Of a stretch of 64,000 nt of DNA, positions 42,591 through 50,727 are shown in pieces. Where the stretch lies: positions 1,440,001 through 1,504,000 of the forward strand of contig CAXXVZ010000003.1 in assembly GCA_963678065.2 (NCBI GenBank), written 5' to 3'. The position numbers and the translations under genes were made by a program. Below the pieces are notes generated by a model that was not told the origin of the DNA, searched no databases, and saw only the letters and a program-made list of their open reading frames with translations. This DNA comes from Treponemataceae bacterium. Lineage in GTDB: Bacteria > Spirochaetota > Spirochaetia > Treponematales > Rectinemataceae. Positions within the stretch are counted from its first letter, which is position 1. The number at the start of each line of letters is the position of its first letter.

Positions 42591-44048
42591 TCAATTCCCT
42601 GCCACAGCGACGAGCCCCGCACGTTCCGCCTCGACGAAGGCGCGCAGCCTCGCGATCTCCTCGGTCGTCCTCACGGCCGCCGGGCCGCCGGTCTGGCTGC
42701 GGCGGGCCACGCAGGCGTCGAGGTCGAGGTAGGACTCGAGCTCAGCCTGCGTGATGCCCGCCTGCGCGAGCGCGGGATGGGCCTCCTGGATCTGTTTCGT
42801 GGACAGATCGGCAGGCCCGCACTTCAGCTCGAGGCAGAGCATGACGACGCTCTTCGCGGCCGCGTAGGCCGTCCGGAAAGGAATGCCCTTCAGAACCATG
42901 TACTCGGCGACATCGGTGGCCTCGAGAAATCCTTCCCTCGCGGATGTTCTCATCCGCTGCGCATCGACGAGGAGCGAGCGCACCAGGACAGAGAACGCAA
43001 AGAGACTGCCCGCCGTCGTGTCGCAGAGATCGAAGAGCGCGGCCTTGTCCTCCTGGAGGTCCCGGTCGTAGGCGTAGGCGAGCCCCTTCTGCATGGTAAG
43101 AAGGTTCATGAGCGAGCCGTAGACCCTCCCCGTCTTGCCGCGGATAAGCTCCGCCGGGTCCGGATTGCGCTTCTGGGGCATGATGCTCGAACCCGTTGAC
43201 GCCGCCGGAGTGATCGAGACGAAGCGGTACTCGGTGCTCGCCCAGAGGATGATCTCCTCGCAGGCGCGGGAGAGCCGCGTCATCAGCATGGCAGCGGCGG
43301 AAGCCAGCTCGACGCAGGCATCCCTGTCCGCGACTGAGTCCATGGTGTTGCGCGTCGGCCTCGCGAAGCCGAGAGCGACCGCCGTGAACTCCCTGTCCAC
43401 GGGCAGGCCGGAGCCGGCCAAAGCCCCCGCGCCCAGGGGACACTCGTTCGCCCTCGCCTCGGCGTCGCGCAGCCTCCCGTAGTCCCTCTCGAAGCCGGCG
43501 CACCAGGCCAACAGATGGTGAGCCAGCGTCACGCCCTGGGCCCGCTGGAGATGGGTGTAGCCGGGCATGAGAGTCGCGGTATTTTCTGCGGCGAGGTCGA
43601 GCACCGCGCCCATCGTCGAGAGCAGCCGGCCGCGCAGCTCGCGGAATGAGCGGCGCAGGTAGAGCCTCAAGGCCGTCGCGACCTGGTCGTTGCGCGATCT
43701 CCCCGCGTGCACGGCGCGCCCCACGTCCCCCAGACGCCTCGTCAGCTCTGCCTCGATGAAGGAGTGCACATCCTCGCTCGCAGGATCGACGGCGAGGGCG
43801 CCGGAGCGCGCCTCTTCCATCATCCGCCCGAGTTCGGCCGCGAGAGCCTGTGCGTCGGCGGCCGGGATGATGCCCGTCATGCCGAGCATGCGCGCGTGGG
43901 CGATCGAGCCTTCGATATCATCGTACAGGAGGCGGCTGTCCACGGAGAGTGAGGACAGGAAAACTTCAAGATCCGGATCGAGGCCGGGTGTCTGCGCTGC
44001 GGCCTCCTCTCGTTTCGCCTGGCCGGACAGTTCCCACAATTTCGCCAT
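42591..44048 (-). CDS. argH: Argininosuccinate lyase
   Basis: EDVH, HAGRSRNDQVAT, MPGYTHLQRAQ, STGSSIMPQKRNPD. Confidence 0.96.
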   Translation of the reverse strand: MAKLWELSGQAKREEAAAQTPGLDPDLEVFLSSLSVDSRLLYDDIEGSIAHARMLGMTGIIPAADAQALAAELGRMMEEARSGALAVDPASEDVHSFIEAELTRRLGDVGRAVHAGRSRNDQVATALRLYLRRSFRELRGRLLSTMGAVLDLAAENTATLMPGYTHLQRAQGVTLAHHLLAWCAGFERDYGRLRDAEARANECPLGAGALAGSGLPVDREFTAVALGFARPTRNTMDSVADRDACVELASAAAMLMTRLSRACEEIILWASTEYRFVSITPAASTGSSIMPQKRNPDPAELIRGKTGRVYGSLMNLLTMQKGLAYAYDRDLQEDKAALFDLCDTTAGSLFAFSVLVRSLLVDAQRMRTSAREGFLEATDVAEYMVLKGIPFRTAYAAAKSVVMLCLELKCGPADLSTKQIQEAHPALAQAGITQAELESYLDLDACVARRSQTGGPAAVRTTEEIARLRAFVEAERAGLVAVAGN

Positions 44049-44227: not shown

Positions 44228-45505
44228 CTAGTCGCCGGAAGGCGCCGTGTAGCCCGAAGAACCCGGAACGAGGACATCCGGCGTTATAGCGCTGCCCGCG
44301 GCCTTGATCCGGGCCTCGAGCCTCGCCCTGACCTTGGTCGGCAGGCCGAAGAGGTTGATGAAGCCCGTCGAGTCGTGGTGGGAGAAGAGCGGTCCTGTCG
44401 TGAAGCTCGCGAGCGAGGCATCGTAGAGGGAATAGGGCGACTTCATGCCAGCGGCGATCATCGATCCCTTGTAGAGCTTGAGGGTGACGCTTCCGGATAC
44501 GCGCTTCTGGGTCACATCGACAAAGGCGCAGAGGGCTTCCTTGAGCGGGCAGAACCACTCGCCCTCGTAGAGGATCTCGGCGAAGCGCTGCCCCACCGCC
44601 TGCTTGAAGGAGAGAGTCTTCTTGTCCAGGCAGAGCTGTTCGAGTTTCTCGTGGGCTTCCATGAGGATGGTCCCGCCAGGGGTCTCGTAGACGCCGCGCG
44701 ACTTCATGCCGACGACGCGGTTTTCCACCATGTCGAGGATGCCGATGCCGTTGCGCCCTCCGATCTCGTTGAGCTTCTTGATGAGGTTGAGGCCGCCCAT
44801 CGCGAGCCCGTTGAGGGAGACCGGCACACCTTCTTCGAAACCGATAGTGACGTATTCAGGCTTGTCGGGCGCCTTCTCCGGCGTCACGCACATTTTGAGC
44901 ATACCCTCGTATTTGGGCTCGTTGGCCGGGTCCTCGAGGTCGAGGCCCTCGTGGCTGATGTGCCAGAGATTGTCGTCGCGGCTGTAGCTGTCGGACTTCT
45001 TCATGGGAACCGGGATTCCGCGTTTCTCGAGGTACTCGATCTCCTCTTCGCGGCTCTGAATGTCCCAGATGCGCCAGGGAGCGATGACGGACATCTCCGG
45101 GGCGAAGGCCTTGAGCCCAAGTTCAAAGCGAACCTGATCGTTGCCCTTGCCGGTGCAGCCGTGGGCGACGGCGTCGGCGCCTTCGGCGATGGCCGCCTGC
45201 GCGAGTCCCTTTGCGATGAGTGGGCGCGCGGCCGAGGTTCCGAGGAGATAGCGTCTCTCGTAGGGGGTGCCCGTCTTTATGAGGGGCCAGAGGTAGTCCG
45301 TCACGAACTCGTCCTTGAGGTCCTGGACGATGAGTTTGGTGGCTCCTGAAGCTATTGCGCGCTTCTCGAGGCCGACCCAGTCGCACTCCTGGCCTACATC
45401 TCCGCAGACGGCGATCACCTCGCAGTCATAATTCTCCTTGAGCCAGGGTACGATCACGGTGGTGTCGAGTCCGCCGGAATAAGCCAGTACGATCTTCTTT
45501 TTCAT
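44228..45505 (-). CDS. argG: Argininosuccinate synthase
   Basis: LAYSGGLDT, HGCTGKGNDQVRFE, ENRVVGMKSRGVYETPGGT; SD AAGGAG. Confidence 0.97.
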   Translation of the reverse strand: MKKKIVLAYSGGLDTTVIVPWLKENYDCEVIAVCGDVGQECDWVGLEKRAIASGATKLIVQDLKDEFVTDYLWPLIKTGTPYERRYLLGTSAARPLIAKGLAQAAIAEGADAVAHGCTGKGNDQVRFELGLKAFAPEMSVIAPWRIWDIQSREEEIEYLEKRGIPVPMKKSDSYSRDDNLWHISHEGLDLEDPANEPKYEGMLKMCVTPEKAPDKPEYVTIGFEEGVPVSLNGLAMGGLNLIKKLNEIGGRNGIGILDMVENRVVGMKSRGVYETPGGTILMEAHEKLEQLCLDKKTLSFKQAVGQRFAEILYEGEWFCPLKEALCAFVDVTQKRVSGSVTLKLYKGSMIAAGMKSPYSLYDASLASFTTGPLFSHHDSTGFINLFGLPTKVRARLEARIKAAGSAITPDVLVPGSSGYTAPSGD

Positions 45506-45584
45506 CGGATGCTCCTTGTGGCGCGCGTTTCATGTACGAAACACAGCGGCAATACAGATAAATTGTGTGGGGGGAGAGAAGGCG

Positions 45585-45662
45585 TCAGCGACGACGGAGG
45601 CGGGCAAAATGGAAAAGAAAAGGGGCAAAGGACAATGAATTGTCCGCGTTCATGGTTGACAT
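45585..45662 (-). CDS. Putative Arg-rich leader peptide of argGH (MSTMNADNSLSFAPFLFHFARLRRR)
   Basis: 25-codon ORF read by hand; ATG lies 6 nt after a -10 box; ends CGC CTC CGT CGT CGC TGA, 79 nt before the argG start. Confidence 0.6.
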   Translation of the reverse strand: MSTMNADNSLSFAPFLFHFARLRRR

Positions 45663-45668
45663 GGAAGA

Positions 45669-45697
45669 ATCTTAGCATGTTCTTGCATATTTATCAA
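45669..45697 (-). promoter_or_regulatory. Promoter of the leader/argGH transcript, with a possible ARG box over the -35
   Basis: TTGATA-17 nt-TAAGAT with extended TG; TGCATATTTATCAA (45684-45697) resembles a single ArgR box. Confidence 0.6.
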
Positions 45698-45721
45698 GGC
45701 ATTACGGCATTTTTTTGTATA

Positions 45722-45769
45722 AATCAACAACTCTGCAGCATGTCGCGGGTATGAACCCACTGCCGAATC
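45722..45769. repeat. Degenerate full-length copy of the dispersed repeat
   Basis: AATCAACAACTCTGCAGCATGTCGCGGGTATGAACCCACTGCCGAATC. Confidence 0.5.
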
Positions 45770-45842
45770 GGTCGCTTTTTGTATGGAATAAGGGGAATGG
45801 CCTCATGTTGACCGCGTTTCTCAACCGTAGTACAACCGGAGC

Positions 45843-46130
45843 ATGGCGAAAAAAGAAGAGATCGTCACGTTCAAGGCTGACGAGCGGCTCCTGGCCGCGC
45901 TCGAAGGGGTGGCCAACCGCTCGGCCTTCATCCGCGATGCCATCCTCGCCGCCCTCGAGAGCCGCTGTCCCCTCTGCCGCGGCACAGGAATTCTCAACGA
46001 GGAACAGCGCGGCCACTGGGAGGAATTTTCGCGTCACCACAGGATCGTCGAGTGCGGCGATTGCCACGCCTTGCATCTGATATGCGACGCCGAGGAGCGT
46101 CCTTTACCCCACAGCGAGCCTGAGATATAG
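45843..46130 (+). CDS. Small ribbon-helix-helix (CopG-like) protein with Cys/His-rich C-terminus
   Basis: IVTFKAD...NRSAFIRDAI RHH pattern; CPLC, HH, CGDCH...C; promoter TTGACC-17-TACAAC 6 nt upstream. Confidence 0.75.
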   Translation: MAKKEEIVTFKADERLLAALEGVANRSAFIRDAILAALESRCPLCRGTGILNEEQRGHWEEFSRHHRIVECGDCHALHLICDAEERPLPHSEPEI

Positions 46131-48748: not shown

Positions 48749-49243
48749 ATGAAAAAGTCAGAGCTCATCGCCGTCGTCTTCACCCTCGTCGCCGCCATCT
48801 CTTCCTTCGCAATCGTCGCCAATCCGACCGTCGCTTCGGTCAGCATCAGCGGCTCCGTCCTGCCGGTCCTGAGCGTCGCGGTCAGCAACTCCACCGTCAC
48901 CGTCGCATCGCTCTCGGATACAGGCGGGTCCATCGACCTCGGAAAAGCCACCTTCATCAGCAACTACAAGTCCTGGAAGGTCACCTTCTCCTCGGCCAAC
49001 GGTGGCAAGCTCAAGCACTCCGATTCCGCTGTTTCCGACGTCATTTACTACAACTTCACCGCGGGCAGCATGGTCTCGAATGTCTCTCTCTCGGGAGCGC
49101 AGACGGTCAACATGACTACGAAGACCGCCAAGGGAGGAGATGAGTACGCGATGGGCGTCGTTTATTCCGCCAACAACTCCGCCAACTACCTGACCTCCGG
49201 CGTCTACTCCGACACCATCACGATCACGGTCGCCTCGAACTGA
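48749..49243 (+). CDS. Secreted pilin/fimbrial-subunit-like protein, copy 1
   Basis: Signal peptide ending SFA, Ser/Thr-rich beta pattern, C-terminal GVYSDTITITV motif as in Csu/SCPU- and CS1-type subunits; SD AGGAG. Confidence 0.65.
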   Translation: MKKSELIAVVFTLVAAISSFAIVANPTVASVSISGSVLPVLSVAVSNSTVTVASLSDTGGSIDLGKATFISNYKSWKVTFSSANGGKLKHSDSAVSDVIYYNFTAGSMVSNVSLSGAQTVNMTTKTAKGGDEYAMGVVYSANNSANYLTSGVYSDTITITVASN

Positions 49244-50244: not shown

Positions 50245-50727
50245 ATGAAAAAGTCAGTCGTCATCGCCGTCGTGTTCGCCCTCGTCGCCGCCATCTCTTC
50301 CTTCGCCGCCACAACCGGATCTGTCGCAGTCAATGGGACCGTCCTGCCGGTCCTGAGCGTCGCTGTCAGCAATGCTTCGGTCACGGTAGCATCGCTCTCG
50401 GATACAGGCGGAACCGTCGACCTCGGAAAGGCCACCTTCATCAGCAACTACAAATCCTGGAAGGTCTCCTTCTCCTCGGCCAACGGTGGCAAGCTCAAGC
50501 ACTCCGATTCCGCTGTTTCCGATGTCATCAACTACACTTTTACCGCGGGCAGCCTGGCTTCGAATGCCTCTCTTTCGGGAGCCAAGGAAGTCAACCTGAC
50601 CACGAAGACCGCCAAAGCTGGCGATGACTACGCGATGAGCATCACGTATGGCGCCAACAACTCCACCAGCTATCTGACCTCCGGCGTCTACTCCGACACC
50701 ATCACGATCACTGTCGCCTCGAACTGA
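50245..50727 (+). CDS. Secreted pilin/fimbrial-subunit-like protein, copy 2
   Basis: Close paralog of 48749-49243 with the same C-terminal YLTSGVYSDTITITVASN. Confidence 0.65.
   Translation: MKKSVVIAVVFALVAAISSFAATTGSVAVNGTVLPVLSVAVSNASVTVASLSDTGGTVDLGKATFISNYKSWKVSFSSANGGKLKHSDSAVSDVINYTFTAGSLASNASLSGAKEVNLTTKTAKAGDDYAMSITYGANNSTSYLTSGVYSDTITITVASN

Follow-up and report, generated by a model that had tools for sequence, protein, structure and literature searches.

Introduction

In the leader-peptide attenuators trpL, hisL, leuL, thrL and pheL, a short upstream open reading frame (uORF) is rich in codons for the end product of the operon, and stalling of the ribosome on uncharged tRNA activates the operon, as summarized in the part of 10.1101/834739 that is cited here. 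For tnaC-tnaAB and speFL-speF, the cited part of PMC12360218 describes a ribosome that is held at the end of the uORF and thereby masks an adjacent Rut site. In these two leaders, stalling on free Trp or ornithine is mediated by a conserved peptide, and the genes controlled serve catabolism or polyamine metabolism.

Arginine is sensed by consecutive Arg codons in the uORF orf34 of Salmonella speF, with involvement of Rho and of structure at the ribosome binding site. There the target is ornithine decarboxylase and the arginine response runs via RNase G and alternative structures; it is by this description only, in the cited part of PMC6386406, that the system is set apart from the leaders reported below. 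The uORF rbfL of Staphylococcus aureus senses arginine limitation via rare Arg codons, which are AGA/AGG; stalling blocks the downstream ribosome binding site, thus acting with opposite sign, and the target is a biofilm regulator (cited part of PMC13009471). The mycobacterial Cys 'ribulon' consists of leaderless short ORFs (sORFs) with end-product codons at their 3' ends and no intrinsic terminator, several operons responding to one codon signal. In its polycysteine sORFs a very stable duplex hides the Shine-Dalgarno sequence (SD), which results in translational control (cited part of 10.1101/834739).

The spirochaete leaders analysed here share with the classical attenuators the short upstream ORF and the clustered end-product codons, frame and sensor codons being conserved. 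However, they possess no terminator/antiterminator pair, their sensor codons abut the stop codon, and the amino acid is arginine. With tnaC and speFL they have in common the presence of Rho and, though weak in some genera, a C-rich, G-poor stretch of RNA that folds weakly and lies at the uORF stop or behind it, whereas no peptide is conserved beyond the terminal Arg motif, lack of Arg-tRNA is the proposed signal, and the targets are biosynthetic. A duplex of the mycobacterial kind is not conserved. By analogy, the spirochaete leaders may be described as trpL/hisL-like in signal and tnaC/speFL-like in geometry, without the terminator that defines the one group and the arrest peptide that defines the other.

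Results

Organization of the argG leader region

On the minus strand of the window, i.e. the whole stretch of 64,000 nucleotides that was analysed, an unannotated leader ORF is followed by a C-rich tract, a hairpin, the SD, argG (79 nt on) and argH. The individual features, numbered by window position, are:

45706..45719, minus strand: weak upstream ARG-box-like site with 3 mismatches (the consensus was shaped by the relatives compared)
45692..45697, minus strand: -35 hexamer TTGATA
45684..45697, minus strand: ARG-box-like site that overlaps the -35 hexamer and has 2 mismatches; likely an ArgR operator (predicted)
45669..45674, minus strand: -10 hexamer TAAGAT with extended TG, ending 6 nt before the leader ATG; predicted leaderless start
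45585..45662, minus strand: leader ORF of 25 codons, MSTMNADNSLSFAPFLFHFARLRRR-TGA (from ORF reading and comparison with relatives)
45585..45602, minus strand: sensor core CGC CTC CGT CGT CGC TGA; third codon CGT in 46/46 argG leaders
45565..45632, minus strand: C-rich, G-poor, weakly folded span with 32 C and 8 G; candidate Rho loading site
45602..45621, minus strand: U/C-rich leader codons with predicted pairing to the argG SD and first codons; the pairing is this genome's and not conserved
45584-45565, minus strand: C-rich tract after the leader stop
45525..45544, minus strand: hairpin between C-rich tract and SD; possible pause element with no U-run behind it
45512..45518, minus strand: Shine-Dalgarno sequence CAAGGAG of argG
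44228..45505, minus strand: argG, argininosuccinate synthase, 425 aa, passing the NCBIfam cut-off
42591..44048, minus strand: argH, argininosuccinate lyase, 485 aa, passing the NCBIfam cut-off

All features named in the original prediction, comprising the promoter, the 6-nt gap, the 25-codon ORF with four terminal Arg codons, the C-rich tract and the hairpin, were found on this strand. The sigma-70-like promoter candidate TTGATA-17-TG.TAAGAT at 45697-45669 is one of two in 900 nt, where 0.5 would be expected. The leader ATG (45662) starts 6 nt past the -10 element, a spacing from which the transcription start of the leader was placed, and the four Arg codons lie within the last five. The 68-nt span over these codons has a C-G value that is reached by 6 of 2659 upstream regions of the genome, itself included. 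Folding of the whole leader is not unusual (z -1.4), and Rfam covariance models, searched over positions 45400-45900, gave no match up to E 10.

Three further observations concern the surroundings. A possible internal argH promoter (TTGACA, 16 nt, TACCCT) is situated between argG and argH at about 44200-44175 on the minus strand. On the plus strand, a divergent ORF of 95 aa (45843-46130) displays a ribbon-helix-helix-like start, with a weak match to the aCcr1 family, and CxxC motifs. Two proteins of about 160 aa that look secreted are encoded on the same strand at 48749-49243 and 50245-50727; they resemble each other and apparently arose by local duplication.

Conservation of the argG leader

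For comparison, 61 upstream regions of argG were collected, 59 from the same family, probably Rectinemataceae, and 2 from a neighbouring family. Two duplicates, three fragment loci, two genomes with 5'-truncated argG and a leader with its argG on a different contig were left out. A leader was counted if a (CGN or GCC)-YTY-CGT core was followed by an in-frame stop at most 5 codons on. The expectation that relatives would carry a conserved sORF with terminal Arg codons was borne out by this upstream comparison: core and stop are present in 46/61 regions, covering 15 of the 20 genera of the family and both regions of the neighbouring family. Since the genomes compared are kin, these counts overstate independence.

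An in-frame start was assigned by rule in 41 of the 46 leaders, 16 of which have a leaderless ATG 6-7 nt past a -10 element, 24 are SD-led and 1 has both; four further starts were recognised by eye. In L107, the leaderless ATG and the leader are in different frames; ten loci have out-of-frame candidate starts as well. The leaders are 10-37 codons long and end in TGA (29), TAA (15) or TAG (2). Conservation does not extend to the peptide residues upstream of the terminal Arg motif; it covers reading frame and stop, the rare codon CGU, and a C-rich, G-poor RNA flanking the stop.

The core is missing from 15/61 regions. In ten of these (9 by rule and 1 by eye: L009, L011, L024, L045, L046, L092, L093, L095, L098 and L100), argG is apparently leaderless, its own ATG being located 6-7 nt past the -10 element, at the place of the leader ATG of the relatives. 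This arrangement supports leaderless initiation at that promoter and suggests that the leader was lost there by deletion. Of the remaining core-less regions, three have a short UTR and two (L110, L111) contain a short ORF without an Arg run.

No argG leader was found at 10 loci of the other families of the order or at 40 loci elsewhere in the phylum, where argG often lies inside an operon, so that absence is not implied. A collection-wide pattern search yielded 56 matches, 7 in spirochaetes and 49 elsewhere. The spirochaete matches comprise four before argG, one before argC, one before a truncated argG-like start plus argH, and one that was unconfirmed by script; by blastp, none of the 49 non-spirochaete matches lies ahead of argG or argC. 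A loose core pattern run across the family was discarded for its many chance matches, two of which, on inspection, lay antisense within another gene. At L226:802-1005, a leader is followed by an argG-like start ending after about 200 nt and then by argH, which could represent an internal deletion or an assembly error.

CGU codons next to the leader stop

The CGT at the third core position, although required by the search rule, was first seen without it. The last CGT is at most 2 codons from the stop in 44/45 argG and 46/46 argC leaders, the latter by demand of the argC search rule. Among the 168 Arg codons in the last six positions of the argG leaders there are 80 CGT, 68 CGC, 17 CGA, 3 AGR and no CGG, and among the 112 of the argC leaders 76 CGT and again no CGG. 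Genome-wide, CGT and CGG account for 0.09 and 0.22 of Arg codons, respectively, and the argG gene itself contains no CGT among 17 Arg codons.

The tRNA-Arg set of this one genome comprises the anticodons GCG, TCG, CCG, TCT and CCT. As ACG is missing, we infer that CGU is read by wobble and is thus sensitive to low charging of tRNA-Arg. Treponema and Borrelia are named in a discussion of Arg decoding strategies in the cited part of PMC3711424. Why CGC CTC is near-invariant in the argG core lies outside what the best model explains.

A second leader before argC

Outside the window, at C5:186549-186406 on the minus strand of the same genome, an SD-led ORF of 47 codons precedes the argC operon. 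It ends in ...LRLFPRR (CGT CGT TGA) and is followed by a C-rich tract. In 51 of the 56 argC upstream regions of the family, leaders were counted as SD-led ORFs with CGT among the last three codons, a rule with a background of 18/2659 genes of the genome. Such leaders, all counted as SD-led, occur in 46/51 regions and 17/18 genera, including the five genera without an argG leader. In the other families of the order a leader is present at 3/9 argC loci (one by eye), with one more being doubtful; outside the order none was found at 12 loci, of which 8 lie behind a long upstream gene. The C-termini (LFPRR, YPVRR, FCRRR, YRK) differ from those of the argG leaders. Directly after the stop, a conserved GGCG-N5-CGCC, possibly a 4-bp hairpin, can be observed in many genera (L133-L146, L158-L162, L170).

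Of the 69 candidate sORF rows of the genome, the argG and argC leaders have the two highest C-G values. No Arg leader was found before its two argF-like genes or argR, and argS is located inside an operon. Upstream of hisG, at C3:222455-222387 (minus strand), lies a leaderless, His-rich leader, MNYEVVAVAILNHRHHGHFQGP (NHRHHGH), with a clear intrinsic terminator behind it, which is likely a classical his attenuator in a spirochaete. In addition, a C-rich, SD-led short ORF at about 1185430-1185300 of C5 (minus strand) ends at the SD of a metK-like gene, and a leaderless 31-codon ORF ending in FQFLKHRIIF, at about 461666-461570 of C3 (minus strand), precedes an aminotransferase-like gene and is a possible Phe-codon leader.

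ARG-box-like sites

The genome encodes argR. ARG-box-like sites with at most 2 mismatches to a consensus that was itself shaped by these sequences are present in 38/60 argG and 44/46 argC promoters as compared to 37/2659 in the background. The argR gene in combination with such sites at most promoters suggests dual control, in which the leader appears to add to ArgR rather than to replace it.

Composition of the leader RNA

In both leaders the RNA on either side of the stop has a C content of 0.43-0.45 and a G content of 0.15-0.21, and C exceeds G after the stop in 17/17 genera for argG and argC leaders alike. The mean C-G across the stop amounts to 12.4 (argG) and 11.5 (argC) versus -2.0 at ordinary gene ends. 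A C-G of 10 is reached by 63/2662 ordinary gene ends and by only 31/45 argG and 26/46 argC leaders, with genera g18 and g21 among the weakest. At silent sites of the argG leaders G is reduced to 0.06-0.09 versus 0.23-0.29, an avoidance that is absent from the argC leaders (0.27, one leader per genus). The RNA span around the leader stop folds weakly, and the spacer behind it is more folded.

Rho prefers C-rich, G-poor RNA. By this preference, the weakly folded span has the composition of a Rho loading site, with the predicted stall midway along it. A rho gene is present in 64/69 genomes, this genome included; Rho is near-universal, and its presence simply permits the model. Some gaps between leader stop and gene start are as short as 35-42 nt, which is tight for Rho.

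The original prediction had stated that an intrinsic terminator is absent, and no terminator-like site was found in the argG leader region of the window. Hairpins with a U-run occur in 2/46 argG and 1/46 argC leaders, and with this frequency (3/92) a terminator/antiterminator output was rejected.

Discussion

A ribosome that senses arginine by stalling at the leaders, whatever the output, is very probable. This part of the original prediction is strongly supported by the conservation, the kept frame and the second leader before argC. It is scarcely credible that the ORF has no role of its own, being either a word conserved as RNA or DNA or a product of drift, and that ArgR alone exerts control: the core is conserved at the nucleotide level, ArgR and ARG-box-like sites exist and a quarter of the argG regions (15/61) do without a leader, but the frame is kept across many lengths while start types and stops vary, and argC is preceded by a second leader of other sequence and the same codon logic. 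A nascent peptide that responds, inside the ribosome tunnel, to free arginine or ornithine instead of tRNA charging, in the manner of TnaC, SpeFL or AAP, is also most improbable. R-L-R is near-invariant in the argG leaders, but upstream residues are not conserved, lengths vary over 10-47 codons and the argC leaders have different ends; the constraint concerns CGU as a codon, not the residue alone. TnaC and SpeFL likewise hold the ribosome at the stop (cited part of PMC12360218), where the stall would sit here, yet metabolite-induced stalling over a Rho site would switch biosynthesis on at high arginine.

The same sensor could act on translation instead, the pyrimidine-rich leader pairing with the purine-rich SD and start region until a stalled ribosome frees the SD, with any effect of Rho being secondary polarity. 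This output is tentative and rather unlikely. In the window, codons 14-20 are predicted to pair with the SD and the first argG codons, and the energy for opening the SD falls from 12.7 to 5.8 kcal/mol with a ribosome on the Arg codons, which fits translational control; a looser SD pairing by other leader codons may occur here. Across the argG leaders, however, stalling gains a median of 0.7 kcal/mol, and the gain exceeds 1.4 in 17/46. Pairing of the SD with the stall footprint is predicted (P>0.5) in 13/46 argG and 10/46 argC leaders, but exceeds that of shuffled leaders in 10/17 and 8/17 genera only; no shared helix was seen in the leaders, nor a conserved duplex between sensor codons and downstream SD. 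The particular anti-SD pairing of CUCC with GGAG put forward in the original prediction found no support: it has a P of 0.05 for the leader in the window and exceeds 0.5 in 3/46 argG leaders, and the word is missing from most argC leaders. As a general mechanism it was rejected. The core variants CTT and TTC would retain G-U pairing to GGAG. While mycobacterial polycysteine leaders set a precedent for translational output (cited part of 10.1101/834739), the C-rich tract behind the stop would be superfluous to it. An output via mRNA stability, where a ribosome stalled on the single-stranded leader protects it against a nuclease or alters its folding, is unlikely. The weakly folded span around the stop would suit it, and Arg-codon pausing governs decay by RNase G in Salmonella speF (cited part of PMC6386406), but no alternative structure is conserved and the bias is for C and against G, as Rho prefers, unlike an AU-rich nuclease site.

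Masking of a Rho site is the best fit to the comparative data when set against CUCC-GGAG pairing. With slightly better than even confidence, the conserved short ORFs before argGH and argC, with CGU-containing Arg codons at their ends, are read as attenuators, in which the stalled ribosome would mask the predicted Rho loading site and Rho would be the main output. The promoter would be gated by ArgR, and the leader would be translated from the first bases of the transcript in this genome and from an SD in about half of the relatives. When arginine is plentiful, the ribosome would complete the leader and depart, allowing Rho to load on the bare C-rich RNA and to terminate transcription in the spacer or in early argG. 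When arginine is scarce, the ribosome would wait at a rare CGU, read through wobble by tRNA-Arg(GCG) and zero to two codons from the stop, and cover the middle of the C-rich span. By masking the Rho loading site it would let transcription enter the operon. In this genome and some others, release of the SD may contribute as well.

To our knowledge, the general teaching is that repressors control arginine biosynthesis in bacteria and that attenuation plays no part. A search of the literature, mostly without subscription papers, gave no account of Arg leaders upstream of argG or argC, and the cited part of PMC8632094 mentions no argG leader. The leaders would show sensing of Arg-tRNA by the ribosome at two arginine operons, in a phylum for which the literature searched gave no such leader. 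Because they have no terminator hairpin, they would escape searches built on terminator/antiterminator pairs; they offer a simple signature that could be scanned for elsewhere, a rare end-product codon beside a stop within C-rich RNA. The chances are evenly balanced that Treponematales possess an arginine 'ribulon', in which two independent leader ORFs, at argGH and at the argC operon, gate Rho by a wobble-read CGU beside the stop and are layered on ArgR. If true, this would be a biosynthetic attenuator that joins the uncharged-tRNA signal of trpL and hisL to the Rho-masking geometry of tnaC, with neither terminator nor arrest peptide.
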